Source of the DNA: Squalus acanthias
Lineage: Eukaryota
Reading direction: 5' to 3'
Assembly (NCBI GenBank): GCA_030390025.1
Contig: CM059432.1
Coordinates: 64,792,001-64,856,000 of the forward strand
Length of the DNA: 64,000 nt
The notes below the pieces were generated by a model that saw only the letters and a list, made by a program, of their open reading frames with translations, did no database searches and was not told the origin of the DNA. A program made the translations under genes and the position numbers. Positions 6,766-55,211 of the stretch are shown here, one piece after another. Every line of letters starts with the position of its first letter. The first letter of the stretch is position 1.

Positions 6766-7661
6766 GTCTAAATTTAACATTGTTGCACCTGTTTTATGGG
6801 CATTCCTGCTCCACCTTGCCCCATCGAAAAGAATGCTAAGTTTTCTGGGATGTTTAGTGAACAGTCTCAAGCGGTCCCTTTAAGGACTGCTGGTTACCGC
6901 ACAGTGCATGCTCCACCAATTTGTATCTCGTAATTGCAATCGGGGTCCTATGGACATCACATTTGCATAGTTTAATGAAGCTTCCGCCTGACTCACTTGG
7001 GCACCAGGGCTGCCCTTATAAAGGCCCCCAGCAAAATGGTGGTGGGTGGGATCGAGCAAGAACAGGGGATGAGTGCAGCATTCCATTTTTAGGGCCACTA
7101 CCTCTCCGTTCCCGCCCGGCGGACCGAGATGTAAAAACTAAAAGTCAGTTCTGGATTTCACCATCTCATATACATAGCAAATTAAATGATTCAATGAATT
7201 TTAAATAAACTCCAAGCGATTGATTCAATATTCAAAGGAATACACTTGGGAATTTTTAACACTAGAAACTTGTTTAATTTCTACATGAGACTCTGTAAAT
7301 TATGCTCAAAAGTTTGGATTATTATGCAAAACATATTATTTACATTTAGGAAATTAGCATGATATCACCAGAAATGAAATACAGTTGCACCCTTTTATGA
7401 AAACTTATAGCATCTTTCAGATGAAATCTTTCTTGGATCTATTTAAATGTGCAATTATTTTATCTACTTTTAGTTCCTTGACATTGGTGCTAAAAATGCT
7501 TATACAGTATTTCTGATGGAAAATAATTTGTTTTTCTACTGTTTATATGTAGGTTGAAATTATGCTGTGCAGTATTAACTAACAAATACATAAACACATT
7601 ACTGTAAAATTCTTCTGCCCACTATTTTAACAGGGCATTAAGCCGTTTAACATAGATTAAT

Positions 7662-8480
7662 ATTAAAAAATGCTGGAAATACTCGGCGGGTCAGGCAGCA
7701 TCTGTGGAGAGAGAAACGGAGTTAATGGTCCCGACATTTACTCGGAGCCACATTGGGAGCGGGGGAGTCCGATATCGTGCGGGAAACTGGAAGTAAGTTC
7801 AGTGCGTCTGTCTGTGGCTTTTTAAGTCAGCCAGCTCATTAGCATTTTACTTCTGGGATTGTCATCCAATCAGCGGCAGCGGATGTGATGAAGACACGCA
7901 TGATGCAATCTCAACTCCAGTATTTAAAGAGGCAATCCGAAGATGCAATTTGGAAGGTTGGGATGTGGGTGTCGCTGGCAAGGCCATCATTTATTGCCCA
8001 TCCCTAGTTGCCCTTGAGAAAGTGTCTTGAACACCTTCTTGAACTGCTGCAGTCCGTGCGGTGAAGTGTAGAAAGTAACCTCTCAGCAGAAGTACAGTGA
8101 CCAAACTCTTTCCCAGGTAAGAAAGCAGCTGTGAGTACTGAGTATTTAGTGCAGCATTTGCATGAGTTTGATTAACCGCTCAATGCCTTCACTGGCAAGT
8201 TTCAGGAAGCTGGGGAAATCCGTGGATGCGCTGTTAAATTTAAAAGTCAGTTGAAATCGCTTCTCCCGAGGAGGTTGCGCACGCAGCCTAACACACTTCA
8301 GTTAAACGTGGAAGTTGGCAGGTTGGAGCCAGCTTCCCGACTCGCTGATATTTTTGCCGGTTTTAATCCCCCCTACAGGTTAAAATTCCCCTCAATGTTT
8401 CAGGTCAATGACCTTTGGTCATCAGATTTATCAGATCAGATGTATTTCAGATTTCCAACATCCACAGTATTTTGCTTTTG
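7662..8480 (-). mobile_element. Penelope pLTR-derived mini-element whose hammerhead is split by a MITE (7727-8393, AAT TSD)
   Basis: 15-bp TSD ttaacatagattaat at 7647-7661 and 8481-8495; antisense pLTR plus sense pLTR tail. Confidence 0.8.
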
Positions 8481-9213
8481 TTAACATAGATTAATGGCTT
8501 GTTCAGAATAGTGGATAGAGTGAAAGAAATACAAAACAAGAAGACAGCACTCGAGTGTAACACCAGCAACTTATTAAAATGCTAGTGGATATTTTGCTAT
8601 CAAGCATTGTAATATTGCACTGCCACTTGAACCCATGCACATTTTTTGACTGGTTCGCTGCCATTGCACACGCAACAGCATCAAGTCATCATCGTATCGT
8701 ATCTTCACACTCTTCCCTGCCACAAGGCTACACATGGCTTGGCATTATCATTGTATTTGGCGAGGTCAGTACTATTACAAGACTCAGACAGGAGTTCACA
8801 GTGGAGCAGATGGTCCATCGTTTGCGGCTCACGACCACAGTCGTACCTTACCGAATTACTGTCATTATAACTACGTTCCCACATTATGGGGGGAATTTTA
8901 ACCCCACAAAACAGATGGGTTGGAGTCGAGTGGGAGGTTACAGTGTAAAAAAACTGAATCCCGACCCCAACCCACTCACTTCCGGTTTTAACGGAGGCGG
9001 GACGGGGGGTGGGGAGCCAACCTGCTCCCAGGAGGCAAGTCGTCCATTTAAATATTATAATGAGGCTGGCATGCCTCATGGTTATAGACCATTACAGATT
9101 TAACTCTGTACAGATTCCAACTAAACTTCCACCCTTCGTGTTTCGGATCCACCCAGGATTACAAATATCTCCAAGATATTCATCGTTCCTCGAACTACTG
9201 CTCTCGCCGCATC

Positions 9214-11679
9214 TTGAGATCCACGCTCAATGCCATGCGGCGCCACATGAACACTCTCGACATCTCTCTTCAGCAGCACCGACGCACTCTATCTCAAAGC
9301 TGTCCAGGTCCACAGTTCCATTTCATCCTTAGACTCATCCGACGCTTCAACAAAAAACTTTTCTTCTTCCTTTCCGATGTCAAGGATCGCAAGCTTCAAC
9401 AACTCTTGGACACTAAAGCCCCTCCGGAACTTTCTTCCCCTTCACTTTCCTCTGACCCCCCTTCTCCCAATCTCACCCCCTGCCGCGTTTTCACTATCCC
9501 CTCTGACCTTCCCCTCTCTGACTCCGAACGATCAGTCCTCAGCAAAGGCCTGAGCTTCATCCCCTTACGCCCCCATCTCAATGAATTTCGAGCTCGGCAC
9601 GATGCTGAGCTCTTTTTCCGCCGCCTCCGTCTCCGTGCCCACTTCTCTGGCCAGGAGTCTTCCCCCCGCACGGCTGACCCTTTCTCCCGCTTTCAGAATT
9701 CTCGTTCCACCTGGACCCCTCCCTCTGGCCTCTTACCCTCTCTTGATCTTTTCATTGCTAACTGCCGCCGTGACATCGGCCAGCTCAATTTCTCTGCTCC
9801 CCTCACTCACTCCAACCTACCTCCCTCTGAACTTGCAGCACTCCATTCTCTCCGATCCAACCCTGACATTGTCATTAAACCTGCTGACAAGGGTGGCGCT
9901 GTTGTTGTTTGGCGAACCGACCTCTACCTAGCGGAAGTTGAACGCCAACTCTCTGACACCTCCTCCTACCTCCACCTGGACCATGACCCCACTACCGAAC
10001 ATCAAGCCACCGTGTCCAAGACTGTCACTGACCTCATCTCCTCTGGAGATCTTCCCCCCACGGCCGCCAACCTCATAGTTCCCCAACCCCGCACAGCCCG
10101 CTTCTACCTCCTTCCCAAGATCCACAAACAGGACTGCCCCGGTAGACCCATCGTTTCAGCCTGTTCTTGCCCCACGGAACTTATCTCTTCCTATCTCGAC
10201 TCTATTTTTTCTCCCCTTGTCCAGTCTCTTCCCACCTACATCCGCGACTCTTCCGATGCCCTCCGCCATTTTAACAGTTTCCAGTTTCCCGGCCCCAACC
10301 GTCTCCTCTTCACTATGGACGTACAATCCCTCTACACCTCCATTCCCCACCAGGATGGCCTGAGGGCGCTCCGCTTCTTCCTTGAACAGAGGCCCAACCA
10401 GTCCCCATCCACCACCACCCTCCTCCGCCTGGCTGAACTTGTTCTCACATTGAACAACTTCTCCTTTGACTCTACCCATTTCCTCCAAATTAAATGTGTT
10501 GCTATGGGTACCCGCATGGGTCCTAGCTATGCCTGCCTTTTCGTGGGATATGTGGAACACTCTTTGTTCCAGTCCTACTCGGGTCCCCTCCCTCACCTCT
10601 TTTTCCGGTACATTGATGACTGTATCGGTGCCGTCTCCTGCTCTCGCCCTGAACTAGAACATTTCATTCACTATGCTTCCAATTTCCACCCTTCCCTCAC
10701 CTTCACATGGTCCATCTCCGACTCTTCTCTTCCCTTCCTCGACTTCTCCATCTCCATCTCTGGGGATAGGTTATTGACTAACATTCACTACAAGCCCACC
10801 GACTCCCACAGCTACCTGGACTACACTTCCTCCCACCCCGCCTCCTGTAAGGACTCTATTCCATTCTCCCAGTTTCTCCGTCTCCGCCGCATCTGCTCTG
10901 ATGATGCCACCTTCCATACCAGTGCTTCCGACATGTCTTCCTTTTTCCTCAACCGAGGATTCCCCTCTACCGTGGTCGACACGGCCCTCGACCGTGTCCG
11001 TTCTATCTCCCGCACATCTGCCCTCACCCCTGCCCCTCCCTCCCGGAACCACGATAGGGTTCCCCTTGTCCTCACCTTTCACCCCACCAGCCTCCACATT
11101 CAACGGATCATCCTCCGCCATTTCCGCCACCTCCAGCGTGATCCCACCACCAAACACATCTTCCCCTCACCTCCCCTTTCAGCATTCCGCAGGGACCGCT
11201 CCCTCCGCGACACCCTAGTCCACTCCTCTACCACCCCCAGCACCCCTTCCCCTTCGCCCGGCACCTTCCCGTGCACGCGCAGGAGATGCAACACATGCCC
11301 TTATACCTCCCCTCTTCCCACTGTCCAGGGCCCCAAACACCCCTTCCAGGTGAAACAGCGATTTACTTGTACTTCCTGCAATTTAGTATACTGTATTCGC
11401 TGCTCACGATGTGGACTCCTCTACATTGGGGAGACCAAACGCAGATTGGGTGACCGCTTTGCGGAACACCTCCGTTCAGTCCGTAAGGGGGACCCCGAGC
11501 TCCCGGTGGCCTGTCACTTTAATTCACCGCTTCACTCCCACTCTGACCTCACCGTCCTCGGCCTAATACACTGTTCCACGGAAGCTCAGCGTAAGCTCGA
11601 GGAACAGCACCTCATCTTTCGTTTAGGCACGCTACAGCCCTCTGGACTCAATATCGAGTTCAACAATTTTAGATCATAA
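9214..11679 (+). CDS. Penelope-like RT - Cys-rich linker - GIY-YIG endonuclease polyprotein (frame open from 9088, native start missing)
   Basis: KPADKGG, FYLLPKIHK, PGRPIVS, TMDVQSLYT, AMGTRMGPSYA, RYIDD, CTRRRCNTC, VYCIRCSRCGLLYIGET..R..EH, GLN. Confidence 0.93.
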   Translation: MRSTLNAMRRHMNTLDISLQQHRRTLSQSCPGPQFHFILRLIRRFNKKLFFFLSDVKDRKLQQLLDTKAPPELSSPSLSSDPPSPNLTPCRVFTIPSDLPLSDSERSVLSKGLSFIPLRPHLNEFRARHDAELFFRRLRLRAHFSGQESSPRTADPFSRFQNSRSTWTPPSGLLPSLDLFIANCRRDIGQLNFSAPLTHSNLPPSELAALHSLRSNPDIVIKPADKGGAVVVWRTDLYLAEVERQLSDTSSYLHLDHDPTTEHQATVSKTVTDLISSGDLPPTAANLIVPQPRTARFYLLPKIHKQDCPGRPIVSACSCPTELISSYLDSIFSPLVQSLPTYIRDSSDALRHFNSFQFPGPNRLLFTMDVQSLYTSIPHQDGLRALRFFLEQRPNQSPSTTTLLRLAELVLTLNNFSFDSTHFLQIKCVAMGTRMGPSYACLFVGYVEHSLFQSYSGPLPHLFFRYIDDCIGAVSCSRPELEHFIHYASNFHPSLTFTWSISDSSLPFLDFSISISGDRLLTNIHYKPTDSHSYLDYTSSHPASCKDSIPFSQFLRLRRICSDDATFHTSASDMSSFFLNRGFPSTVVDTALDRVRSISRTSALTPAPPSRNHDRVPLVLTFHPTSLHIQRIILRHFRHLQRDPTTKHIFPSPPLSAFRRDRSLRDTLVHSSTTPSTPSPSPGTFPCTRRRCNTCPYTSPLPTVQGPKHPFQVKQRFTCTSCNLVYCIRCSRCGLLYIGETKRRLGDRFAEHLRSVRKGDPELPVACHFNSPLHSHSDLTVLGLIHCSTEAQRKLEEQHLIFRLGTLQPSGLNIEFNNFRS

Positions 11680-11955
11680 CCTCAGCTCCAATCACATTTA
11701 TATTTTATTTTATCCACCCTTTTATTTGTCCCCCCCACCTTTTTTTTCCTCCTAGAAGCTGGCAGCTGTCCTTCATTCTGCCAGTAGATTTCACACTTCA
11801 TTCAGCCTTAATCTGTCACATTAACACCACCTCTAGCCTTGCATATCTCTTAATGTCTCTTAATGTCTCTTCATCTCCTCCTTTGTTCCTTTATCCCCTC
11901 CCCCTTTTCCCAGCTTTACCCTGGCCTTAAATCTATTTGATTTCCAGCTCTTCCC

Positions 11956-11992
11956 AGTTCTGATGAAAGGTCATCGACCTGAAACGTCAACT
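11956..11992 (+). ncRNA. Minimal type-I hammerhead ribozyme in Penelope pLTR (GUC cleavage triplet)
   Basis: AGUU-CUGAUGA-A-AGGUC(AUC)GACCU-GAAA-C-GUC-AACU: conserved core, stem I AGUU/AACU, 5-bp stem II, vestigial stem III. Confidence 0.88.
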
Positions 11993-13784
11993 CTCTTTCT
12001 CTCTCCACGGATGCTGCCTGGCCTGCTGAGTTTTTCCAGCGTTTTCTGTTGTTATTACAGATTTAAATCTGGCTGGTCGGGTTTTCCGGGCCTAACAGAA
12101 CCCGCCAGCTAAAGGAAGGTGAGGACTGCTGGATCCAGGAGCTAAGTGTCTTTCCATTTACCTCCTGGATCCAGCGTCCCTGCCTCAACAACGCTCTGCG
12201 ATCGGACACCCCGAGGCCTCCGATCCCCCTCCGGCCCACAATTACCTTCCCGGCCTCACCCCTCCAGCCAATGCTCATCTGGCTCCTGAGTCCCGACCCT
12301 CCCCCCAATGCTCCTTTGGCTCCCGATGGTCCTGTGGCCCTCGATGCTCCTCTGGCTCCCGATTCCTAAGTCCCGAGTCCTGACCAGCCTTCCCCCGATG
12401 CTCCTCCAGCCCCCAACACTTCTCCGGCTCCCAAGTCCTGACCACCGCCCCTCCCCACTGATGCTCCACTGGCCCCTGATGCTCCACCGGCTCCTGACCA
12501 CCGCCCTCCCCACCTACCCGCCCACAGCCAGCCAGCATCTCCATCTGGCTGGCTGCGGCTGGGAAACAGAGGTTTGAAATGCAAATCAAGTCCTGCTGTT
12601 CTCCCAGGTTTCCCAACTGCTCTCTAGCACCCCTGCTCCTGACCCGCCTCCAGATTAAATATCGGCCCATTAGTTTTGAACAACCAGTACCAGTGCGTAA
12701 GCAATTGGCCACGGTTCAGAGTCGCCAGCTGGGAGATTCTCATTGGGTTTGATATTCAAACGATATGACTTAATCCATACATGTATTTATTCTCCACTGT
12801 TTTATATTGGAGTCAAGAGGGTTGATAGAGGGCAGGAAACTGCGTCTCGACTTCAGTCTACTCTGTGCAGCATGATGCTGGAACAAGGGACGGTGAGGGT
12901 CATTAGATTGTCTGTTTCTTTCAGCTGCTCTTTGTATGTCTAGCGGTGCAATACCTGACAGTAGGTAAGGATTGTCTATCTTGGTAGGTTTAGGGCAACC
13001 AGTAATGCAACAGCAGCAGGCATTAAGAACAGAATACAATTTCTTTGCATAGGTGCAGCGTTCCCATACATATTCGGCAGCCGAAGAATGGAGTGTCAGA
13101 GCTGTAGTCCTGATAGTGTTTGCCCACTTTCAGCTAGCCAGATTTCATAGGATGTTATTGCTAGCTCCAACTTTAGCTTTGATGATGTGTTTCATATAAC
13201 TCAAAGTGTAATGCAGTGTCACACAAAGATAGACAGAATTCAAACAATGATTAAGTCTATTCCCATATCACTCAATATGTAATTCCCGTTTAGCTTCTCT
13301 ATTCTTAAAGTGGAATGCATATACCTGTATCCTATCCAGATTGGCCCTTAGTAGATTGGAGGTATAGTATTGTTTCAGCCAAGATAGCACGTCACTCAGG
13401 GTTATTTCAATCCTATCAAAAGTCCAGCTTTGAGCCATAACATAAAGACCATCTGCATATAGGAAACTTCTAGTCCATGGATGGATATGTTGGTCGTTGG
13501 GGTATCTATTATACATATATATTGAATTGCATTGGTGCTAGCAAACTACCTTGTGAGAGTCAATTTCTTGCCTATGCCAACAGCTTTTTTTACCGTATGG
13601 TTCCATTAAAAATGGCGATTTGCCAAGAAAGTTTGGATGAGCTCTATGATAAGCATCCTTTGTCATATTGAAAGCCTTCTGCACAAGTATTTGGTGATTA
13701 GCAGTGTCATAGGCAACTGACAGGTCAAAAAAGCTCCAGTTATTAGGCCTTGTTCAAATCCATCTTCAACATATTAGATCAGAT

Positions 13785-14837
13785 CGCACTTCTGCTCTCA
13801 CCCCTTCCCCTCCCTTCCAGAACCATGATAGAGTTCCACTTGTCCTCACCTTGCACCCCACCAGCCTCCACATTCAACGGATCATCCTCCGCCATTTCCA
13901 CCACCTCCAGCGCGATCCCACCACCAAACACATCTTCCCTTCCACTCCCCTTTCAGCATTCCGAAGGGACCGTTCCCTCTGCGACAAACTGGTCCACTCC
14001 TCAATCACCCCTAATACCCCTTCCCTTCCCACGGCACCTTCCCGTGCAAGCACGGGAGATGCAATACCTGCCCTTTCACCTCCTCCCTTCCCACCGTCCA
14101 GGGCCCCAAACACTCCTTCCAGGTTAAACAGTGATTTACTTGTACTTCTTGCAATTTAGTATACTGTATTCGCTGCTCACGATGCAGTCTCCTCTACATT
14201 GGGGAGACCAAACGCAGATTGGGTGACTGCTTTGCGGAACACCTCTTCTCAGTCCGCAAGCGTGGCCCCAAGCTTCCGGTTGCCTGTCACTTTAATTCTC
14301 CGTGCCACTCCCACTCTGACCTCTCTGCCCTCGGCCTCTTACACTGTTCCAACGAATCTCAACACATGCTCAAGGAACAGCACCTCATCTTTCGATTAGG
14401 CACTTTGCAGCCTTCTGGACTCAACATCGAGTTCAACAATTTCAGACCATAACATCTGCCCCCATTTTTTCAGATGGCAGCTGTTAATGATTCTGCCATT
14501 CCCATTTACACCTATTCTAGACTCATATTTTATTTCTTTACTTGTCCCATTACCATCTCCTTTTGCTTTGTACAATCATACCTTTTGTCATTTAATCTCT
14601 CCTGCCTTCCACCCTATCACAGACCTTCCCTTTTGTTCTTTCCTCCGCCCTCCCACTTTCCCTGCCCTTGCACTTGCTTAAACTTGTTACATTCCTAACT
14701 TTTTCCAGTTCTGATGAAAGGTCATCCACCTGAAACATTAACTCTGTTTCTCTCTCCACAGATACTGCCTGACCTGCTGAGTATTTCCAGCTTTTTCTGT
14801 TTTTATTTCAGATTTCCAGCATCCGCAATATTTTGCT
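13785..14837 (+). mobile_element. 5'-truncated Penelope copy (frameshifted GIY-YIG, 3'UTR, pLTR)
   Basis: Similar to 11010-11680; TSD ttagatcagat at 13774-13784 and 14838-14848. Confidence 0.92.
14707..14743 (+). ncRNA. Decayed minimal hammerhead motif
   Basis: AGUU-CUGAUGA-A-AGGUCAUCCACCU-GAAA-CAUU-AACU; one stem II mismatch and CpG decay. Confidence 0.7.
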
Positions 14838-14956
14838 TTAGATCAGATTAAGTAGTCAGCTTGTGCAGGATCTTCAAGGCAGAATCCTGCCTGTTCTAGG
14901 ATAAGCTGCTGTTCCACATGGGGATAGAGCCGGTTCAAATAACATAACACTATTGG

Positions 14957-15062
14957 TCTGTAATAACAACAGACAACGCTGGAAAAACTCAGCAGGCCAG
15001 GCAGCATCCGTGGAGAGAGAAACAGAGTTAACGTTTCAGGTCGAAGACCCTTCGTCAGAACT
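14957..15062 (-). mobile_element. About 106-bp solo pLTR mini-insert with an intact hammerhead motif (15026-15062)
   Basis: Reverse complement AGUU-CUGACGA-A-GGGUC(UUC)GACCU-GAAA-CGUU-AACU; the rest is nearly identical to the pLTR at 11993-12062. Confidence 0.87.
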
Positions 15063-15769
15063 ATCGTACTATTTCTTTGACTATCTAGTAGAAGCTGGTG
15101 GGAAACTTGATCTGCTGCGACATTGTAGAGTGTGTTCAATTTTGTAATGTCATTGCTGAGTATTCCTATGGTCCTCCAAGCTTTCTTGCTGCTGTGAGTC
15201 AGTCGAGTCAACCAGCTGTTGCTGAGTTTTACATCATTCAGTTGTGATTGCAGTAATGAGTTTGTCACCTGCTGTTCCGGTATCAATAGCGGACGTTTTT
15301 TCTTCTGGAAGCATTCTATGTATTCCTTGTATAGCTCTTTAGCTTCATCAGATAATGCTGGGCTACAGCTTGTGGGATATATTCCTTCGAGCAGCCTTGT
15401 GTATCAATTTCCCAAAGTATTCCTAGTTCTCAGGTGTACCAGGTATATATTTGATGGCTGCATCCAGATCAACCGAGCAACATTCCCAATCTGGAACAAT
15501 GGCAAAACAAGATGGTCTTCAGGAAGATAGCTGCATGGATTTTAATTCCGATAGGGTGGTGTTGCAGGTTTGGGATTGAACCTAAAAAAATGTTTTGCAT
15601 TGATTGGCAATAGTGTTGCTGGCAAATACCAAGTTGGGGTTGATTCCACTTCTCCAATGGCCACTACTGAATGAGTTAGGAAGATTGGGGACAGCTGATT
15701 TGCTTCTGCCCAGACTTCCACCAATTCATCACCTTCATTCATCTCAGAATAGCCAAACAGCATGCTACA

Positions 15770-16405
15770 GTGAGAGGATTCGAGTACAGGAGCAAGGAGG
15801 TCTTGCTGCAGCTGTACAGGGCCTTGGTGAGACCACACCTTGAGTATTGTGTGCAGTTTTGGTCGCCTTATCTGAGGAAGGATGTTCTTGCCATGGAGGG
15901 TGTGCAGCGAAGATTTACCAGACTGATACCTGGGATGGCAGGAATGACGTATGAGGAGAGATTGGGTCGACTGGGCTTATACTCGCTAGAGTTTAGAAGA
16001 ATGAGAGGAGATCTCATTGAAACTTATAAAATTCTAACAGGGCTAGACAGACTGGATGCAAGAAGGATGTTCCCAATGGCGGGTGAGTCCAGAACAAGAG
16101 GTCACAGTCTAAAGATAAGGGGTAAGCCATTTAGGACAGACACGAGGAGGAGTTTCTTCACCCAGAGAGTGGTGAACCTGTGGAATTCTCTACCACAGAA
16201 GGCAGTTGAGGCCAAGTCAGTAAATATATTCAAGAAGGAGTTAGATATATTTCTTAAGGCTAAAGGTATCAAGGGATATGGGGAGAAGGCAAGGACAGGG
16301 TACTGAGCTTGGATGATCAGCCATGATCTCATCGAATGGCGGAGCAGGCTCGAGGGGCCGAATGACCTACTCCTGCTCCTATCTTCTATGTTTCTATGTT
16401 TCTAT
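15770..16405 (+). mobile_element. Young CR1 3' fragment
   Basis: ORF 15770..16306 encodes the CR1 C-terminus; (ctatgttt)n tail; near-identical to 24386-25130 and 46521-47788. Confidence 0.95.
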
Positions 16406-17270
16406 GGTTATTAAAATTGCCAATCATAACATGAACCCAGCAAGAGAGGACATAAGTGGAACAGCATGACAGAAAGGATAGGGGGACTAAAAAACAAGTG
16501 GAATAGGGGGACTGTGAGAAAGGCCACGTGGAGCAATGAAAAGAGGAATTGGGGGGAAGCAGCAGGTGGGACATATGGGGCAATGGCAGAGGTATTGACA
16601 TATGAACAGCAAGCAAAGATTAAGGTGGTATAGCGAGTCAAGGAGAGAGCAATCAATGTTAAGAGAGGGGCGATGAGTTGCAGCAACAGAAAGGGGCATG
16701 GGAAGCAGTGAAAGAGGGACAGAAAGTGAATGTAATAAGGGAACAGCAATAGAACTGTACATGGGCAGCATCAAAAGAGATGTGATGATGGGTCACGAAA
16801 GATGTGAACATATGGGGTCAGTGACAGACATAAGGATATAGTGAGAAAGGGTGCATATGTGGCCAGCAAGAGAGTAGCTCTAGGGGTACAGCAACAGAGG
16901 CTTATGTAGGAAAGTAGTCATCCAATTTACCATGAGCAATATCAGGGGAGATCAAATGGTCTTGTAAACATATTCTTTTCCTTCAGCATAATGCTGTGTT
17001 TATACACTTGCTTTGAAACCTTCATTCAACCTTGCGGGAGGATAAAATACGACACCTCCTGGAGCCTTTTCCAATAGATTATCTCTACCTTCTTCTCTGG
17101 CCAAGTATTCAATTCACATAGAATGCAATGTAACACCGCAGAGTCTAACCATATAGATGTTAAATTGTCAAAGCACAAGAGAATCTAAGTGACATATACT
17201 CAAAGATCTGAGGTTTCATTAAAAGGGTACATAGACATGCCATATGGCATCCTTGTACAGTGTAATACCA

Positions 17271-17625
17271 TCCTTACCTCTGTAATCTCCTCCAGCCCCA
17301 CAACCCCCCGAGATATCTGCACTCCTCTAATTCTGGCCTCTTGAGCATCCCTGATTTTGATCATTCAACCATTGGCGGCCGTGCCTTCAGATGCCTAGGC
17401 CCTAAGCTCTGGAATTCCCTCCCTAAATCTCTCCGCCTCTCTACCTCTCTTTCCTCCTTTAAGACACTTCTTAATACCTACCTCTTTGACCAAGCTTTTG
17501 GTCATCTGTCCAAATATCTCCTTATGTGGCTTGGTGTCAAATGTTTTGTCTTATAATACTCCTGTGAAGTGCCTTGGGATGTTTTACTACGTTAAAAGTG
17601 CTATATAAATACAAGTTGTTGTTGT
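17271..17625 (+). mobile_element. L2 LINE 3' end
   Basis: GGRAFRCLGPKLWNSLP..SFKTLLNTYLF; tail atataaatacaagttgttgttgt; same family as 37643-39315. Confidence 0.88.
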
Positions 17626-19379
17626 AGTTCAGTTAAATCTTTTCATAGCTTTGCTGACTCAAGGGTATTTTTATCTCTCTTATTTAATCAGACTAAAACA
17701 CTGGAGAAGTAGCCTGCTGCTACAAATTGTAGTTAAAATGTTGAAACACTATAAAACATTGCACAGCAAACATTGAATGCTGACCGCTAGACTTGCACAT
17801 TTATAGCAAAGGATTAATTCATTGAGTGGCAGAAATATGGTTTAGTGCTATAACAGAGCATTGTGAGCCTGGTAGTTGCCAAAGGGAGTTTTACATTATT
17901 CCTTTAATCAATGCTCTTTATGTAATTAGTTTAAAATGTTCTGACAGCTGTTCCATTGAGCAAGTACTCTGTACCATGCATCCCCAAAAGCGATATATTG
18001 CTGTTCTCAATGCTTCACCAGGATTGTTTACTGACTGTGGGAAACAAAAGTTCAGCAACAGGTTTAAGATCCTGTTGATAAAATGCACTCATTGTGGAGG
18101 GGGAGCCCCAGCCAGGGCGAGGTGTGGGGGGCGGGGGCAGGTGGCAGCAGCCCATATTGTTTTTGCGGAGCCTGGAGGAGCATCCCTGATCCTAGTTCTG
18201 CACAGTAGGCTATTCAAATTCCATCAGGGCCCTATGTACATCATAGCACCCCGATTTGCATGGATTATTAAGCAGACGCCGGGGCCACCCAGCAGCAGGC
18301 CCTGGGGAAAATGGGGGCAGAGTGGGAATGAAGCGTAAGTTTTTTAACTCTGCTACCGCCCATTTCCACCAAGCGGAGGGAGTTAAAATCTCCCCTTATA
18401 ATTGTCTGTGTGACAATTCCTGTAAAGACATTTAGATTTAAGAACTAATAATAACTTCTTAATTAGACATTGGTAAAGTTACAAAAGGGCTCCAGTTACC
18501 CAAGAATTACTGCAAATGCTTGACGTTCATACACTTTAATTGAACCTTCAAACTCATTACTGCTGTGCTAATCATTTCCAATGAAGTGCTAAATACTGGC
18601 ATATAAGACTTAAAAGTTAATTATTCCTCTCCCTCCATTAAAGAAGAAAATGCATATATAGTTGCTATGGTAATTAACTTGAAAGTGTCATTTAATGTAA
18701 CTTAATATTTGTAAGGAAAGGTTAATAGTTTTGTGAAAAAAGGTTTAAGAACATAAAAAGGAGATGCAATTTGGTACAGTAACTCCTCAAAGTCTGAACT
18801 TAAGGTCCTTTAAAGATTAAACCAAGTATTAAAGTGTATCTTATGTCTTACCTTAATATCTGAATTATTAAAAAGGGGAATCATCAGTGGAAAGTCTGCC
18901 TACAATGCTGTATTTCTATTCATAGCGTAATCAGAGTAGAATTTTATATGCACCATGGGGAGTTCTGAAAAAAACATTTGCTCTAAGTCTGCTTCCAATC
19001 AAGACTGCCAATCTGTAAGAATTGCCAAGTTCACTTCTGTTACAAGTTTGTTCTTTTCTTGGAAATCACATTGCGCAGAGAGAAATACTTTTGCCTCATA
19101 TAGAAGACATCTTCCTTGTAGAGTTGGGTGATAAGATGCTTTCTTATTCCCTCGAATGGGCAAGCTGATTAGATAATGTGGGTAGGAAGGAGATTGGAGA
19201 AGAAATTGATGAGAATTGAGGATTTAAGTTTAGGCCTAAGAGGGCAATGTGCTGTCTAACTGGGCTTTGCAGTTGCCTTGTGTAAAGCAACTTATTTAAA
19301 AATACCCAGCCACCATTAAAAGTAAAATGTAGCACTGGTGAGGATATTCTTTAAGTCCCTTCAAGGAAATCAAGGACAC

Positions 19380-19705
19380 AAAAGTAGAAAATGCTTGAAC
19401 ACTCAGCAGGTCAGGCAGCATCTTTGGAGAAAGGAAAAGACATATGTTTCCGGTCTAAAATAAAAACAGAAAATGCTGGAAATACTCAGCAGGTCAGGCA
19501 GCATCTGTGGAGAGAGAAACAGAGTTAACGTTTCAGGTCGATGACCCTTCGTCAGAACTGCAGTATTTTGCTTTTGTGTTTCCGGTCTAAACCTTGTTCA
19601 GAACATTTTTTCTCTTTCCACAAATGCTGGCTCGCCTGCTGAGTGTTCCCAGCATTTTCTATTTTTGTTTCGGGTTTACAACATCTGCAATATTTTGCTT
19701 TTTGT
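19380..19705. mobile_element. Nested Penelope pLTR mini-elements: 117-bp inner copy (19460-19576) inside an older inverted-pLTR copy
   Basis: TSD tgtttccggtctaaa at 19445-19459 and 19577-19591. Confidence 0.85.
19523..19559 (-). ncRNA. Minimal hammerhead ribozyme motif
   Basis: Reverse complement AGUU-CUGACGA-A-GGGUC(AUC)GACCU-GAAA-CGUU-AACU. Confidence 0.85.
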
Positions 19706-20267
19706 TTCACTGGACAAGACACAATGCAGCATATTGCTAAATACTACTGTATCTTTCCATTCTCTCTTAGCAGAAGCAAAAAGATTAAATAATATCATCT
19801 TGGTTTAAAACCTTTTTGCAATAACATTATCATGTCAAGTCGAAGATCAGCCCTGATCTTATTGAATGGCAGAGCAGGCTCGAAGGGCCGTATGGCTTAT
19901 TCCTGCTCCTAATTCTCATGTTCTTATGTATTAAGTTTGCTGCAGATTCTCCCAAAGCACATACTGTTAATTCAAGGGAATTCATTATGATGCCAAGATT
20001 GGTAGGATTCATTTGGAGAAGACTCAGATGCTGCAGATTGCTGTACTTTGAAATAAGACACACATTCTCCAACCATAAGGGAATTAGTTACTCAATTCTG
20101 TCTTTGCTTTCCAATCATTGGATCCTGACATAGGGAGGCTGGAGAATTTTAGTTTAAACATAGCAAATATTCAGCAGAGACTGAAAAAGGCAAAATAATT
20201 CTCTTGTAATCAGACTCTAGGCAGATCAATTCCAGTGACATTAGTGAATATATTCCAAGGGGTTTTT

Positions 20268-22220
20268 AACCCGTGGCCCCCTCCTCTTCCTCATCTACAT
20301 GCTGCCCCTTGGCAACATCATACAAAGAGGGGGTAATTTTAACCTAACTTGCTGGGCAGGAAACCCATGGGATTGGATGGAACGCCAATTTTACGCCCCA
20401 CCCAATATTACTCTCTGCTGATTTCAATGGAGAGTAAAATCTGGCAGGTTGTAAAACCAGCGTTGTACCTGATCCTGTCAGGTTCCTGACATGCGGCTTA
20501 GGTTAAACTTGCCCCCGACAGGTTCCATATTTACGCTAATGACACCCAGCTCTATCTCTCCACACCTGTATCAACCCCTCCACTGCCACAATTTCCTCCA
20601 GTTAAACACTGAGAAGACTAAAACCATCATCTCTGACACCAGCCACAAATTCTGTATGCTTACCACCAATTCCATCACCCCTCCCCGGCCACTGTTTAAG
20701 GTAGGACCAGACTATTCATAATTTCAGAGTCCTATTTGGCCCAGAGCTGAGCTTTTGATCCCATATCCTCTCCATCACAAAGCTCACCTACTTCCATCTC
20801 CGTATCATCGCCAGTCTCTGCCCCGCTGGAGTCTATCTGCTGCAGAATCCCTCATTTATGCATTTGTTACCTCCAGACTTTATTCTAATGCTCTCCTACC
20901 CGGCCTCCCATCCCCCACCCTCCATAAGCGTCAGGTCATCCAAAAACTCTGCTGTTAGTATCCTATCTTGCACCAAGTCTAACTCACTCATTATCCCTGT
21001 ACTTGCTGACCTACATTAGCCTCCTGTCTCCCAACATCTCAAATTTTAAATTCTTATTCTCATGTTCAGGTTCATTCATGGCCTCGCCCTTCTGTAATCT
21101 TTTCCAGCCGTACAACCCTCCGAGAACTCTGCATTTCTCCAACTTTGGTCTCTTGTGTATCCTGAAATCCCTTTGCCATCTGGGGACTAAGCTCTGGAAT
21201 TCCCTCCCTAAATTATCTCTTTGCCTCAGCACCTCACTGTCCTCCTTTAAGAGCCTCTTCAAAATCCACCTCATCGACCAAGCTTTCAGCCATCCCTACT
21301 AAGATCTCAGGGGGAGAAATTTGGTTGCTTAGCACCTCCCGTTAGCGCCTCAGCGGGGCACTAACGGGGCGCTAGGAACTTAGTGCCCGAACACGGCGAT
21401 TTTAGCGGCGCTCGCAAAATTGACCAGTCGTTTTGCGGCGGCGTTAAACAATACCGCCACGATCTCCTGCGCCCACAGATCATGACGTCAGTCAAGCATG
21501 CAACACCCCAGTAGCGCCCCAGACCGGATATTGAGTTGCGCCCCCTGCCTTAGCGCCTGCCGCTAGGAACGACAGGTAGAGGGGAACGTTTTCAAGTCGG
21601 GAAGGGGCTGGGGGAGCGCTATTTAGAGGCGGGCACTTCCTGCCTTTTCTTGTTGGGAAAATTTTTGGTCTTAACACTGTCCTAAGGAGTTTTGGCCCTC
21701 AGCACTGCTTTTGAGGTTCCTAAGTGCCGAGCACTTTCCGTGGGCCTATACATTAGTGCTTCCAACACAATTGCTTTTGAGGTCTCTCCAGGCCGAGATT
21801 CAAGGCTGCAATGAGCAGGGAGTGGCTGGCCAGCAAGATGGCCCCTCCCCTTTAAGAACTGGATGGCGCCAGTCTGTCTGGCTTCCATGGTAATTGTCAT
21901 CGCCTGAGCTTTGGTAGCGTTCAGAGGTAGCGCCTCGCTCCCTGATGTTTGCGCCTTAAGAGAGGTGTGTAGCGCCTGATTTAATGCTCAAATCACCTCC
22001 AGGGACGATAGAGGCAAATTTTGCAGTCAGAGGCAATAATTGGCGCTGGGCGCTAAAATTTGCACCCGGTCAATATTAGCGCCCCAAAATGGACGATACC
22101 GAATTTTTCCCCCTTAATCTTTGATTCTATGTCAATTTTTGTCTGATTATGCTTATATGGAACACCTTGGGATGTTTTCTATGTTAAAAGAGCTATATAA
22201 ATGCAAGTTGTTGTTGTTGA
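20268..22220 (+). mobile_element. Degenerate L2 LINE interrupted by MITEs (about 20327-20517 and 21310-22113)
   Basis: NFLQLNTEKTKTI, LIYAFVTSRL, KLWNSLP; (gtt)n tail at about 22208-22220. Confidence 0.8.
21310..22113. mobile_element. GC-rich Harbinger-type MITE (family of 48564-49284)
   Basis: TIR gggggagaaatt / aatttttccccc; repeated TAGCGCC motifs. Confidence 0.75.
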
Positions 22221-26663: not shown

Positions 26664-28275
26664 TTCATTTTTGTTTAGAATACACTAATTTCACACTTAC
26701 CTGATACTGAAAAATTACCCGCCCGAAACTCAAGAGAAGTACCCAAACATAGCAACGTGGTGATAACGGGTCGGATTTTTAAAAGCATTTTGTAAAGCAT
26801 TTTCGGATGCAGTGTATAGTTTTTGTAAAGAGTTGTGACTTGTTAGAGATTAAATAAAGCCACTAATATAGTTTATAAACCAACTGTCAATCTATATTGC
26901 TTGAGGTTTGAAAAAAATAGCAACTCATGATTTCTTACCAAATCTCATAATTTTTAAGAGTTTGTCTCATGATTTATGAGACGCTGGGGTTGGCATTACT
27001 GGATAAGGCAAAGCATCCCTGCTCCTCCTTGCCCCACATGAATCCTCCAAAAAGCTTACCTTTTGGGAGAGGCCTTCAACAGTCCCTTTGAGGGACCTCT
27101 CAATGCCTGGAGAAAGTGGGACTATCATTTGTCGCACATGCATTGCAATTGGAGTCCTATAACTGGGAAAGGGCTCTGATTTGCATATTGAAACTGCTTC
27201 CGGTCTGTTTTGGGCAGGAGTGCTGGGCACCAATTAAAGACCTGTCTGAAAGTTGATTCAGGTGGGCAAATGGGTGCAAAAGGTCCCCACCAAATTTTCA
27301 ACTGCCGGGCATCGGTTTTTCAGGCAGTTGAAAGTCTTAAAACAGATTACTTATTAGTAATTAGGTGTTTTATTTCATTATATAATGGCTGAAATTAGTA
27401 CACTGATTTCCATAGCGACAGGTTCCAGAGTGCAGTAATTCTCCAGTGAGATGAAAAGCCAATATCAAGTGTTTCAACATGTTTTATCTGGCTACATGTT
27501 ATGTCTCCAAATAACAGCAAAGATGGATTGTACAGAATCCTTTTGAAACAAATTGGGCTAAAAATTGGATAGGACGTGAAAAAGGGTGCAGGGATCGTGA
27601 TGCGAGATCAGCCTACGCCCGTTGAAAGGAATACAGGCAGAGTGTGATCTTCATGCTGCCTGCTAATTAATATGAGTTCCCAGCAGGGGGCCCAAGTTCG
27701 TGCAAGGCTAGCTCCAATTAAAACTAGTCTCCACTTCTTAAAGGCAATGTCAACCTCTTAAAGGGGAGGTGTATTCTGCCTGCAGCAGCTGCTGGAAAAG
27801 GTTGTGGAGGCAAATGTGACTGAATAATGGCTTAACAGGCCAGAGAAAGGACTCCAAGGACAAAGGCAGTAGGAGCAGATAACCGCCACTGTCAATGCCA
27901 GCAGTGTTGCCCCGAGGACATGGATGCAGTGCCAAAAGAAGTTCAATGACCTCACACAAGTGGTCAAGGTCAGTGAATGCATCTTTAAATGCCGTCTCCC
28001 ACAACTGCACCACTAGCCTCACACACTGCTCAATGCACCACACAAAAGAACGTAAGAAATAGGAGCCGGAGTAGGCCATTTGGCTCTTCGAGCATACAAC
28101 AAGATCACACCCCCATCACTCACCTACCAACAATCTCTAGCAATCACGATTCAAACCTTACATTCATAGCTTCACCTCACCCTCACACATTTACCACTGC
28201 TGTAAGCTTCACACCCACATCTCACACCTTGCACACACTGCCAGTTATTCAATCATGACAGGCACATCACCCTAA

Positions 28276-29355
28276 CACATTGCACCACACTCACTCACAC
28301 ACACATCACCCAATCACATTGCACCACACTCACTCACACACACATCACCCAATCACATTGCACCACACTCCCTCACACACACATCACCCAATCACATTGC
28401 ACCACACTCACTCACACACACATCACCCAATCACATTGCACCACACTCACTCACACACACATCACCCAATCACATTGCACCACACTCACTCACACACACA
28501 TCACCCAAACACATTGGTGCAGAAATTCCGACCCCTACGGGCGTGTACGCGCTGTGTACTCACCCGTAGGGACATCGGAAATGCCAGTTTCAGGCATGCA
28601 CTGTGCATGCGCTGGAAACCGGCATTTCAGATCGGTCAAGAAAGCGCTCGACAGATCCTCCGGCTGCCCGGGAGAAGGGCCTTTGCGGGCGGAGAGTTCC
28701 GCTTTTTGGAGACCCTCTGCCCGCAGAAAACACGTACAATTCTTGCGCCTGGTAAAAGCAGGATAAGAGTTGAGAAAAGTTTTAAAAAAAATTTCCACTG
28801 ATTTATATTTATCATTTAAAAATACTTTAAAGAAAGGTAAGTTTATTTTTAGCCCCGTTAAAAATTTTAATTATTTTTTTCAAAAAATAAAATTTTTGTT
28901 TAAAATACTTAATTTATTGTAATTTAAAGTCATTTTAAAAATGTGATTTAAAATTTTTTTTTTAAAGTTTTACTATGTTTTGGGGGTGATCGCTATTCAT
29001 ATATTTGACATGTCTTCCTGTCAAATGTATGAAGGGAGATTCCCTTCTCTGATTGGCTCCCCATGGCCCACGTGATCCCAGGGACGCTGCGAACCGCCTG
29101 CGTCTATGGGATACGTGGGCCCTGCGCACCAGCAGTTTGGAGAGGCCCAGCAGCGGAACTCTGCACCTCCCGGGAGCCCTCCGGTCTTGGCGCAGATTTT
29201 TCCAGATCGCAGCCCTCCGCCCACGGGAGGCCTGCGATCGGAATTTCTGGGCCATTTGCACCACACTCACTCAGAAACACACATCACCCAATCACATTGC
29301 ACCACACTCACTCACACACACATCACCCAATCACATTGCACCACACTCACTCACG
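28276..29355 (+). repeat. 39-bp minisatellite (cacattgcaccacactcactcacacacacatcacccaat), about 6 + 2.5 copies, split by a MITE
   Basis: Read directly; lies in intron 1 of the Myb/SANT gene. Confidence 0.95.
28516..29253 (+). mobile_element. ATT-TSD MITE (about 740-760 bp family), divergent copy 1
   Basis: att|ggtgcagaaattccg...cggaatttctgggcc|att; AT-rich core shared with three other copies. Confidence 0.88.
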
Positions 29356-30929
29356 CACTTCCCTCTCTCTTGCAGGGCAAGATGGCTCATAACCGCAGGC
29401 AGCAGCAGCTAACCGGCGGGGGATAGGCAAGCCTGCATATCCTTAACCAGGTCGAGGAGACGGGGCTCGACATTATTGGAGGAGCCGTCACTGAAGTTGT
29501 GGTGAGCGGTGAGGCTGAAACCATTGAAGATGACGGTATGCTCATACCTAATCCTCCTTCTTACATCCCACTTCCCCCTCGTTCCACAATCTCTTCTCAC
29601 TAACAAGCTGCTGATGGTGTACGCATGCACATCTTGTTTTCTTCCCACACAACAACCCTACCCTTGTGCCTTTCTCCTTTCAGATACCCAGGAACTCCAA
29701 ACTGACCAGCTAATGCAGTAAGAGCAAGAGGAGAGTGATGGAGAAGAAAAGGCACCATCACTCGAATTCACACGCGCAGGCACCAGCTCAGGTACTGGCA
29801 CTGCATGTAATTTAGAGGCTAGTTTAGAGGCATGATCTGCACATGATGAGTCACCAGGCATGAGTGGGCTATAGCCAGGACAGGGGAAAAGGGTAACGCA
29901 GGTGCCAGCTCCCCGGAGGACGAGGTCGCACATGTGTTCTGCTACAGAGGACTCAGATGACAACTTTGATGGAGCGGCCTACAGAAGAAGGGTGACGGGC
30001 ATGCACACAAAAAGTATTGGTGCATTGGCAGGCCTGCCAGTGAGCCTGTTGTCACTGTCAAGGATCATGGAGGTGTCCGACACCAACCTTGCACAGGACT
30101 TCGCACAGAGCTTGGAACCCAGGATTTCCAGGATGGAAGTGATGGGCAACTCCATTAGAGCACTTGTGGACCCAACTATTATGCAGAGTCTGATGGTCGA
30201 TGTCTCAGCTTGGCTTGCAGCACAAGCGGAAGCGACCCAACATCTGAGTGCTGCAGTGGAAGCTCAGCCTTCTGTCATGCAAGCTCAGACTGCTCTCATG
30301 CAGATGCAGTTTGCTGCCATGCAAGCACAGATTGCTGCCTTCATGGCTGCATTTACCAGTGTTGAAAGGGGCTTGCAGGGTATCACAGCAGTCCAGCAAT
30401 CTGTCCTCCAAAAGCTTATGCGAATTGCTGACGCGCCACCCCGGGGGAGTGGCAGTGGCTCCATGGAGCACAAACCTGCTGTCCTCCCACCACTGCCACT
30501 CCGCCAGTGCCCTTGATGCTGCATGCCAGCCAGCCAGCCCAGACTGATGCCGGCCATGACAAGGTGGTGCAGTCCGCAGCCAGGCCTTCTAGGTCCAGAG
30601 CTGCTCGAGGTCGTCCTGCAAGACCATCTGCAGTCTCCCCCACTGAAAGTCAGCTACCTTCCACCAGCCGTGCTGCAACCGCTGGGGTAACACTTCGTAG
30701 GAGCACGAGGACAGGCAAAGGCACATGGAAGACAGACACTAAGGGAATGCACAAGGGTGATTGGTTGACTTTGCTTTGTAATATTGGATTGATTGATTTA
30801 TAAATTTGCTTTGGAATATTTGTTTTGTGGTGGCTTTCATTTCAACATTGTGGCCAAGAGGACATTGTGATGTTCCATGACAAAGGGATGGTAAGGTGGG
30901 GAAGTGTTGAGCAACGGGGATCTGGGATT

Positions 30930-52200: not shown

Positions 52201-52741
52201 CTAAGGTGTGGTGCCCAGAACAGCTCACAGTACTCCAGCTGTGGTCTAACCAAGGTTTTGTATAGCTGCAGCATAACTTCTAACCCCTTGTATTCTAGTC
52301 CTCTAGATATAAAGGCCAGTATTCCATTAGCCTTTTTGATTATTTTCTGTACCTGTTCTGTGAAGGAATTCTACTATATAACCTGTTTAGAAAAATATAC
52401 TATATAAGATAAATACACTATAGCTTTTTTAGAAAAATACACTATATAACTTTTTTAAAGGAAGGCATGGCAAGCTGGATTTGGAAATCCTACCTTCTGA
52501 AAGAATTTTGGCCTCATTGAGATAAGACAGTGGTTAACCCTGAAAAGTACCTTATAAGGAACTCTACCTTATAAATTCTTTGGAACATGACAAACTGGGT
52601 TTGGAAATTTAGAAACCTAACAATGAAATAGCTATGAAAGAATTCTGGCTATTGAAATAGGACAAGTTGTTGACCCTGAATAAGTAACCTTATTGAAACA
52701 GAAGAATGGGTGGCCCCGAATAGGTAACCTTATTAAAATAA

Positions 52742-53293
52742 AAATGAGAAGTCGCACAACACCAGGTTATAGTCCAACAGATTTATTTAAAATTACAAGC
52801 TTTCGGAGCTGTCGCCCCTTCCTCAGGTAAAGTTACAATGAGTGAATCTACAATATTTCACAGTATATAGACACAGAAACTGCAGAGATACAATCTTTCA
52901 GGGAAGGTGTCTTTACATCAAAGACACACCAAGAGCACAGCCAAGACAATGAGATGTGTCACAGGGGGGGTCCAATGTGTCAAATCCTGCTGTCTGCAGT
53001 GGTTTTTTTTGGGGGGGTTTTTTAGGTTTGGTTTTTTAGTGTTTTTTTTTAAAACTGGAAAGACAGACAACGATGTCGAGTTACGTTCTGTAGCGTGACA
53101 TGAACCCGATATCCCTATTGAGGCCGTCCTCATGGGTGCGGAACTAGATTCACTCATTGTAACTTTACCTGAGGAAGGGGCGACAGCTCCGAAAGCTTGT
53201 AATTTTAAATAAATCTGTTGGACTATAACCTGGTGTTCTGCGACTTCTCATTTTTGTCCACCCCAGTCCAACGCCGGCATCTCCGCATCATGA
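52742..53293 (-). mobile_element. Second-family Penelope fragment with inverted pLTRs
   Basis: Minus strand FRTHEDGLNRDIGFMSRYRT* (GIY-YIG C-terminus); 110-bp inverted repeats; TSD ttattaaaataa at 52730-52741 and 53294-53305. Confidence 0.88.
53165..53202 (+). ncRNA. Minimal hammerhead ribozyme, family 2 (identical antisense copy at 52793-52830)
   Basis: UUAC-CUGAGGA-A-GGGGC(GACA)GCUCC-GAAA-GCUU-GUAA. Confidence 0.8.
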
Positions 53294-55211
53294 TTATTAA
53301 AATAAGACAATGGTCAGCCCTGGATGAATTATCTTGATTAAAACCTCTTGAGAATGAAATGATGTAAGGTACATCTGCCCTTTGCCCACATATGGTAAAC
53401 TCCCAATAGCTATTGATGATGTGGCTGTAAGAATTTCAGTCGGTCAGCTAAAAGATGATTAGTGATAATTAACTTGGATCAACAGAAACCTTATAAAAAA
53501 CAACTGAAAAAGGGGTATAAATATTGGAGTCTCGAATGAGAAAATCAGACTCGCTTTAATCGGGCAAAGCGATTCTCGACTACAGCAGCAGCTCTGTAGT
53601 CCTTCACTCTTTTGTACCTCGGGGATTGAAGGTAACTGCTACCTTGATAATTGATGGATATCCTGTAATAGACAAGTTTAAGAACGGTAATACTGTGGCG
53701 AAGTTAAGATTTATAAGTAGGATTCTCTGTTAAGGATAAGATTGTATTTTTTCTCTTTTTAAAACTGTTAACATTGCAATGGACTGATTCACCAACTGTA
53801 AATTGCATGTCGTTTTTTTCAATAAATCTCTATATATTTTTAGAATTGTCTCATATAAGTCTTCTGTGTCAATAACTCGCGAACCCAATCTTTGTACACT
53901 CTTTGGTGAAGAGTTACAATTTCTGAAGGAAATCTCCGGACCCTCATCCGGGACTTTACTGTCTGGCTAAACTTATTAAAAGTGCTATCTGGAGGACGGT
54001 AACATTCTCGGGTTGTTCCTTTCCTTTAGGGAGAGATAGCCCAGACCTTTAGACCCAGTTAAGCGTCTTTAGGATTCGGCTACCTCAACCTTTAGTTGAA
54101 AGTGAACATCTGAGAAATACGCCTGATCCGGGGTAGCCCCAAAGGGGCTGGGACTAGTAAATATCCTTTCAGTTAAAGACATTTTAATGATCTATGTACC
54201 TGGACCCCCAAGTCTCTTTGAACCTCCACTGTTTTTAGCTTTTCACCATTTAGAATGTATCTTATTCTATCCTTTTTAGATCCAAAGTGGATGACCTCAC
54301 ATTTGCTTACATTGAAATTGGGAGCCTGATTTGAAGTTAACTGCTGCTGCATGGGTTTCCCAGGGGTCAGGAAACTTGGCAGTGAAACATAGGTGGGAGC
54401 TGCCAGCTCCACAAGTTAAGTGGCTGTGCCAGCGCTCGTTGTAGGCCAGGAGTGGCAGGAGTGCTTCCCTCCAATCCACTCAAGGAAGCTTTCGGCCTCC
54501 ACCAGCCCCGATTGCCAGCCTATCCCCAGCCCTCTCGATCGCAGGCATCCATTCCACGATTGTCGATATCCCTCCTCCTTCCAATTGCCAACCTCAAGCC
54601 ACCCCCCACCACCTGATTGTTGACCTGCCCCCTCTGATTGTCCAGGACCGTCCCCAAGGATCCCGGGCTGCGAGCTCCTGGTGCTAGTGCTTTTTCCTGC
54701 CTGCTGGGCAGGCTGTCCCTTTAGCCAACTCCTGGGTGGGAGGCAGAGCTGTAAAATGTCTCCCTTCTTCCCGGGTTCTTTGGCTGTTTTAAGCTTCACT
54801 CAAACCCTTCCCACTTCCCTGTAAATAACAAGGTCATTATTTGTGTTTTCAATTTCACCCATTTTCTCACCTGTTCCATGGGTGTGCCTCTCAAACGTTC
54901 TTTGTTTCTTTAATATTGTTAATTTTTTTGATGCTTCTTTCCATTACCTGACTGAGATCATCTGTCGCATCATCTAGCAATCATTTCTCCAAATCCTTCC
55001 TTTTTCAGATTCTATTAAATGTTTGTTCATCATCTCTCAATTTTTTTCAGTTCTGAAGAAGGGGCCAACCTGAAATATTGACTGAAAGGCTTTGAAACCT
55101 GCTTGGTTCCTAGTATGTCATGTTGAGAAATGCCCTCATATTTACCCTAAATTTTACTGCAACGCAAGCACTAACACAACGACCAAGAAGAAAATTGATT
55201 CTGTGCTAACC

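Follow-up and report, generated by a model that had tools for sequence, protein, structure and literature searches.

A 64,000-nt stretch of the Squalus acanthias genome (assembly GCA_030390025.1, contig CM059432.1, positions 64,792,001 to 64,856,000 of the forward strand; hereafter the window) carries several short non-coding inserts derived from a Penelope-like element, each made up largely of an antisense piece of the element's pseudo-long terminal repeat (pLTR) that ends at the foot of a hammerhead ribozyme motif. Judging from sequence features, and with a probability of about 0.7, we read this edge as the capped 5′ end of the element RNA, that is, its transcription start, at which reverse transcriptase (RT) would run off the template and leave stubs that are dead ends. 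The edge would coincide with stem I of the hammerhead most likely because the start site of the promoter is located there. By their sequence, the stubs belong to a known type of Penelope insertion and form no family of their own. Ordinary as they are, their ends nevertheless predict a transcription start to the base in two element families, and the underlying count of ends is repeatable in any genome rich in Penelope elements. For annotators they come with a warning, since such stubs do not represent a short interspersed nuclear element (SINE), miniature inverted-repeat transposable element (MITE), or retrozyme family.

Truncation hot spot at the foot of stem I

Element positions were numbered so that the first T after CAG is +1, which places the 5′ strand of stem I (AGTT) at -2 to +2 and the predicted ribozyme cut at +31/+32. 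The 3.7-Gb genome, which is rich in Penelope-like elements, was sampled in two parts. The first comprised the first 100 places listed by two exact-pattern searches on contig 1, extracted as 60 loci and 124 10-kb stretches with omission only of places in shared stretches, and the second comprised 20 evenly spaced 10-kb stretches together with one adjoining the window. Because the search patterns are located 3′ of the ribozyme, they do not select for 5′ ends. In total, 379 pLTR-derived segments (arms) were found, of which 361 were distinct, 359 were aligned, 299 belonged to an unbiased set, and 262 passed our filters (92% identity, 200 nt of flank). Excluded from the unbiased set were the 30 loci of the first DNA search, which were biased to the query junction, 20 loci chosen as full-length, and the window itself.

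The 3′ ends of the unbiased arms clustered at about +97 to +101 and +133 to +136, which are the two ends of the known tail; in an anole element studied in vitro, two RT start sites likewise bound the tail, and open reading frame (ORF) sequence beyond these sites was required (PMC11167929). For the inverted inserts, 67 of 68 arm records fitted a pairing of one arm from each RT start site, and an adjacent target site duplication (TSD) of 10-17 bp (median 14) was present in 58 of the 68. Paired arms, two start sites, and a TSD together identify the known Penelope insertion form, in which both target ends are primed.

At their other end, 72 of the 204 arms at risk terminated within the 10 nt from -5 to +5, where 6.6 were expected from the flanking rates (Poisson p ~2e-48). 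The density of ends was 0.035 per nt in this hot spot, compared with 0.0039 downstream and 0.0025 upstream. An original prediction, drawn up from the window's sequence, had held that the recurring boundary was not random 5′ truncation, and in this it was borne out; the even spread of breakpoints that it named as speaking to the contrary was not seen. The hot spot was equal for arms from start site 1 (36/111) and start site 2 (36/90), and an identical peak from both sites means that the edge is fixed by position, not by length, so that a length-limited RT was rejected. Single arms joined straight to target DNA, with no partner arm, ended in the hot spot in 48 of 130 cases, and hot-spot single arms abutted a TSD of at least 10 bp no less often (17/39) than other arms did (13/53 upstream and 4/15 in the remaining group). 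None of the 262 arms ended at the predicted cut site (+31 to +33), on which ground a cleavage-end model was rejected. A ribozyme-defined stop or template switch is thus not supported in the form given in the original prediction: no ends fall at the cut site, the stop nearly disappears on a second pass of RT (see below), and arms joined directly to the target also show the hot spot.

A second Penelope family, unrelated in sequence and differing in the distances to its start sites, served as an independent test. It is represented in the window by an insert at 52730-53305 whose two arms are mutually inverted, only one of them carrying the tail, and which has a 12-bp TSD. Here, 12 of 36 arms at risk ended in -6 to +5, one of them a mis-mapped long arm, and no arm end was found in -19 to -6 among these 36. 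Genome-wide, with end positions and adjoining bases tallied by hand on the first 100 rows per listing, the first family had 36,354 copies with an exact 28-nt ribozyme core, 6,775 of which were without the element's T at -7. Since 88 and 6 of the 100 rows tallied in the two listings had truly ended, an estimated 7,500-8,000 first-family copies, about one-fifth, end within -6 to +1. In the 100 rows of one of these first-family listings, ends fell at +1 (19), -1 (31), -2 (17), -3 (about 9), -4 (about 7), and -5 (5), while 12 were long. In the second family, 5,246 of 18,922 core matches were without T at -7.

Promoter-like motifs and an excess of G at the edge

In a long copy of the young parent family, the first family of this study (plus strand, 9088-12064), a TATA-like TTAAA at 11927-11931 lies 29 nt before the A of an initiator-like CCAGTTC at 11954-11960, also on the plus strand. 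This A, at 11956 (-2), is both the first base of stem I and the predicted capped start, and TTAAA would be part of its putative promoter. The initiator consensus is YYANWYY, which CCAGTTC fits around the A at -2. Among long arms, 112 of 117 had TTAAA 29-32 nt before this A, across subfamilies with differing spacers; as the long arms are mutually related, the spacing indicates conservation and does not amount to 112 independent cases. In the second family the corresponding A is at -5, within TCACTTC, and 17 of 24 arms have TATATA 30-33 nt ahead of this A. The initiator A stands at the start of stem I in the first family and 3 nt before stem I in the second. A similar TATA/TCACT pair is carried by a rotifer pLTR (PMC3846280).

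The base preceding the initiator A adds a cap-like signature. In the second family it was G in 20, A in 7, T in 6, and C in 3 of 36 arms; the G excess (20/36) compares with 4/22 at the next start (Fisher p 0.006) and a background of 0.20. One base further, the sequence matched the element in 3 of 36, which is the chance level and makes the second-family edge sharp. For first-family arms starting at -2, the G:A ratio was 65:35; at -4, which served as the control, it was 41:59 (p 0.001), and the background was 0.46-0.49. In L1, an untemplated G together with a YR initiator has been read as the mark of a reverse-transcribed cap (PMC9341517). Truncation removes the TATA-like box, which is situated 5′ of the stub, so that renewed transcription of a stub would require an internal promoter.

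Templates of short and long copies

The edge is met a second time when RT has copied a whole unit. To represent this second pass, 79 of the 150 near-full-length matches listed were aligned (19 of the first 20, and 60 with a frame other than 1004 aa, a choice that enriches early ends). Of these, 43 reach +5 or beyond, and 1 of the 43 ends in -5 to +5; for first-pass arms of this family the figure is 26 of 97 (p = 3e-4). The nearest other second-pass ends are at -6, -8, -12, -17, and -20. By hand count, 62 further listed matches have the 1004-aa frame opening at -94 and would pass the edge as well, and the 8 remaining lay outside the analysis. If RT were halted by a sequence or fold, the stop should appear on either pass, so its absence on the second pass argues against such a cause. 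That whole-unit copies seldom end at the edge argues, in turn, against their synthesis from a linear RNA starting at the cap, and since long copies pass the edge on both passes, their template should be without a 5′ end there.

Short and long copies therefore likely use different templates, as far as their ends can tell. The simplest template of the kind needed for the long copies would be a unit-length circle, cut at two hammerheads and ligated, although we advance this only tentatively. A circular RNA template arising through cleavage by two hammerheads has been proposed before (PMC4209133), and it would also account for the lack of ends at +32 and for exact multi-unit arrays; the alternatives are multimers read through from far upstream and efficient end-to-end jumping. 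Extended to vertebrate Penelope elements at large, the scheme is again possible but falls short of even odds: their RNA would begin with a hammerhead, a capped precursor would give rise to stubs of ~100-135 bp, and rolling-circle reverse transcription of a circle would generate tandems and arrays. If the circle reading is true, the genome holds thousands of footprints of both templates, and both the regeneration of the pLTR, for which no obvious mechanism besides tandem formation had been put forward (PMC2377424), and the role of the ribozyme would be explained.

On the capped-start reading, the steps would be as follows. RNA polymerase II would start at the initiator A, producing a precursor RNA that begins with the hammerhead, and the RT-endonuclease would prime inside the 5′-most pLTR, at its two start sites, and copy 100-135 nt. 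The cap would be copied as a single C before RT falls off the template, after which host repair would use 0-5 nt of microhomology to attach the end of the cDNA either to the target or to a second cDNA. The 3′ pLTR ends at the tail and may lack downstream ORF sequence of the kind that the anole enzyme needs. Long copies would come from a template without a capped end at the edge, possibly the ribozyme-made circle.

Several observations weigh against parts of this account. In about 20 of the 65 first-family G cases the partner arm could be the source of the G, which reduces the excess. The commonest apparent first-family end is -1, not -2, and the approximately 21 rows that reach -3 to -5 exceed chance extension from one start, which points either to a dispersed start or to a further component of the edge. 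Furthermore, 24 of 63 stub arms had nearest neighbours that were exclusively stubs, and rare alleles were more numerous in young-family stubs (1.0 in 48 nt) than in long arms (0.41; p 0.0015), an unexplained excess that may reflect age or templates from aged copies. The internal promoter of the Drosophila virilis Penelope (PMC2377424) implies that stubs may not be silent. As to the circle, ribozyme cleavage was dispensable for the anole element in vitro, where no reads ended at the cut site (PMC11167929), and our within-array homogeneity test of a circular template was underpowered, with one locus and two comparable units.

Among competing explanations, the original prediction had put forward, as one of its readings, a retrozyme- or SINE-like unit, here taken as an independent mini-element that amplifies as such. 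Thousands of copies of similar length would suit it, as would the stub-only neighbourhoods and a few recurrent junction types of the second family (one being common to about 8-10 of 100 rows), although the latter match inter-arm microhomologies of 2-3 nt. Other observations speak against it. All 39 inverted inserts examined (39/39) had different pairs of end points, and a 24-mer across the junction of the inner insert at 19460 occurred a single time in the 3.7 Gb, with no other copy. Four of the five commonest haplotypes contained both stubs and long arms, stub-only haplotypes had at most 2 members, and no mini-element subfamily independent of long copies was found among the arms compared. Moreover, the 3′ ends are the two RT start sites of the parent, the TATA-like box lies outside the stub, and no tandem array of ribozyme units was present in window positions 7000-20500, where stubs are single or inverted. 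We regard this explanation as largely refuted and highly improbable.

The stop could instead be set by the initiating ribonucleoprotein, with RT tethered to the pLTR or hammerhead and falling off at its 5′ foot, much as telomerase has a template boundary, or with a nuclease trimming the RNA or cDNA, in either case without a cap. The tie of the position to stem I in both families and the confinement of the stop to the first pass are compatible with this, as are the soft, roughly symmetric first-family peak and a monomer hairpin that can span -3 to +38. It predicts, however, neither a G excess specific to the initiator A nor the TATA spacing in both families; the second-family edge is sharp and lies 3 nt outside stem I, local folding was no better than that of shuffled sequences (z -0.2 to -1.5), and the product length of the anole enzyme tracked the template 5′ end in vitro (PMC11167929). 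We consider it unlikely. Still less probable is a variant of the capped start in which RT runs off short transcripts of truncated, promoter-bearing copies mobilised in trans, so that stubs are a non-autonomous output. About two-thirds of arms retain the TATA-like box, and the rare-allele excess of young-family stubs would fit, but truncated copies lack the ORF sequence past the start sites, which was a requirement of the anole enzyme. Paired arms also share few rare alleles (5 shared and 82 unshared over 2011 sites in short inverted inserts; 3 and 33 over 1315 sites in long ones), contrary to one diverged template, although two RNAs would fit as well and the comparison does not separate cis from trans templates. 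Hardly credible, finally, is an edge that reflects a splice acceptor, a ribozyme cleavage end, or an artefact of inter-arm microhomology. CAG precedes +1 in all first-family subfamilies and a D. virilis intron terminates at helix I (PMC4209133), but the second-family edge has no AG, and hot-spot single arms abut their TSD without an extra exon (the 17/39 and 13/53 above); short microhomology at several window junctions could mimic an edge, but not in single arms, whose partner arm is absent, and a cleavage end is at odds with the empty interval at the cut site.

Viewed against known systems, the element resembles endonuclease-bearing Penelope-like elements of the Neptune clade in its partial tandems, 5′ truncation, inverted 5′ copies, 30-40 bp tail, and pLTR hammerhead (PMC8557442), as well as in its single ORF with RT and C-terminal GIY-YIG domains, DKG motif, and CX4CX2C linker. 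It differs from the Neptune elements as described there in the first-pass-only peak at the TATA/initiator pair, the cap-type G, and the strict pairing of sites 1 and 2. With Poseidon PAc of Anolis carolinensis it shares two internal RT start sites, priming of both strands, and an ORF that starts in the hammerhead, although PAc belongs to another clade and RT starts, not cDNA ends, were mapped in that study (PMC11167929). Hammerheads of metazoan Penelope-like elements are likewise of the minimal type I, with an extra base before stem II and a palindromic helix III; single ones are widespread, and opposite-strand pairs have been attributed to truncated elements (PMC4209133). No breakpoint analysis is given there; the circle was put forward as a proposal, to which the missing second-pass stop lends indirect genomic support. 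Non-LTR retrozymes are also pLTR-derived, non-coding, and hammerhead-bearing, but form head-to-tail units with at least two ribozymes and small circles (PMC7229834; bioRxiv 10.64898/2026.07.22.740005), whereas the stubs here occur singly or inverted, every one having a junction and a TSD peculiar to it.

Two further parallels concern run-off at a 5′ end. The minus-strand strong-stop DNA of long terminal repeat (LTR) elements is a short cDNA that arises from internal priming near the 5′ end. The 5′ ends of full-length L1 insertions with an extra, cap-derived G are similar to those studied here in that RT reaches the capped end, where a G is left behind (PMC9341517). Unlike in both, the short product here becomes integrated to form a stub, and the cap is not where full-length copies end. 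Neither a truncation peak at a capped start nor the contrast between passes was found in the Penelope literature searched, as far as its accessible parts extend; older work, or figure S2 of PMC11167929, may show them.

Inserts and parent elements in the window

All four inserts named in the original prediction were confirmed. When mapped on the long copy, their antisense arms terminate at +4 (insert at 7662), -2 (14957), -2 (inner, 19460), and -1 (outer, 19380), each within -5 to +5 of stem I and two of them exactly at -2. Their described make-up of Penelope pLTR, inverted tail, and long TSD also held, with exact 15-bp TSDs at 7662 and at the inner 19460 insert. Several of the junctions in the window rely on short microhomology.

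The first insert is flanked by its TSD at 7647-7661 and 8481-8495. Its antisense arm (minus strand) runs from RT start site 1 at 7662-7725 (element ~+95 to +30), continues at 8394-8421 (+31 to +4) with an end in the hot spot and a mutated ribozyme, and is followed by filler up to a sense arm (plus strand, 8443-8480) that comprises the tail from +96 to +134 and ends at RT start site 2. The interruption at +30/31 is a later, unrelated insertion of ~670 bp (7726-8393) with a 3-bp AAT duplication, which contains a repeat that recurs at 83-149 and 55228-55294. This intruder adjoins the cleavage triplet, and comparable intruders near +28 to +34 were observed at three sampled loci (L097, L119, and L162).

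Insert 2 (minus strand, 14957-15068) belongs to the young subfamily and consists of a site-1 antisense arm that ends at 15062 (-2), followed by 6-8 nt of sense tail; its flanks match exactly over only 6 bp. Insert 3, the inner one (minus strand, 19460-19576), has a site-1 antisense arm at 19460-19559 (to -2) and a sense tail at 19560-19576 (+117 to +133), between TSD copies at 19445-19459 and 19577-19591. The outer insert 4 (19375-19702) is an older, degenerate copy with an antisense arm at 19375-19444 and 19592-19604 that ends at -1 and a sense arm (~19602-19702) that begins near +32; inspection of its flanks revealed no clear TSD. Insert 3 thus landed within an older Penelope copy, in the degenerate ribozyme (19445-19591), and Penelope-into-Penelope nesting was also seen at L110 and L261.

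The long copy of the young parent family at 9088-12064 contains an 863-aa open frame (9088-11679) encoding RT and GIY-YIG with the 5′ end cut off, followed by the 3′ untranslated region and the hammerhead, and ends at RT start site 1. Pfam matches of this frame to RVT_1 and GIY-YIG were weak, both falling under the curated cut-offs. A search with the N-terminus gave a list of 150 matches of 99-100% identity; stop-to-stop frames of 1004 aa were frequent among them, and some were arranged head-to-tail with units 3199 bp apart. The full protein of 971 aa has DKG, RT, and GIY-YIG motifs and a CX4CX2C linker (CTRRRCNTC), and its ORF starts with an ATG at +6, within the hammerhead core. As a CX2-5CxxC linker before the endonuclease marks Neptune/Nematis (PMC8557442), the parent is, by ORF and linker sequence, a young, high-copy, endonuclease-bearing Penelope element, probably of the Neptune type. 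Exact pLTR pieces occurred 10,216 times for the older subfamily (46 nt) and 17,479 times for the young subfamily (38 nt). A 5′-truncated sense copy of the older subfamily lies at 13785-14839 (plus strand) and ends at RT start site 2.

The hammerhead of the long copy spans 11956-11992 (plus strand), with its predicted cut between 11988 and 11989. An Rfam scan of the inserts returned no ribozyme match. The motif has CUGANGA and GAAA cores, stems I and II, a palindromic helix III, and a UH triplet, and on this sequence basis is a minimal type I hammerhead, with self-cleavage predicted. The second family has the same core with compensated stems (AGTT/AACT vs TCAC/GTGA and TTAC/GTAA) and a different palindrome (ACGT vs AGCT). 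In the older subfamily, +30 to +53 (window 19510-19535, minus strand) resembles a textbook splice acceptor, having a branch-point-like TTAAC, a pyrimidine tract, and CAG before an in-frame ATG, and the young subfamily has CGG in place of this CAG.

A few other loci displayed unusual arrangements. At L018:1250-1610, two consecutive sense segments both start at -3/-4, one extending to +245 and the other to +101, as if RT had run off, jumped to another RNA, and run off again. Paired inverted arms at L133, L035, L184, and L178 differ at subfamily-diagnostic non-CpG positions, a hint of two RNAs per insertion. At G000:C3:100478360-100478813, an 84-bp ORF piece is repeated in tandem at least five times at the 5′ end of a long copy, which suggests repeated RT slippage. 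The same stub with identical flanks was present on at least eight small contigs (L007, L008, and L010-L015) and hence is part of a larger repeated unit. Elsewhere in the window, a 39-bp tandem repeat occurs within a larger dispersed repeat at 28219-28569 and 29236-29391, with relatives near 43650, 56090, and 60940.

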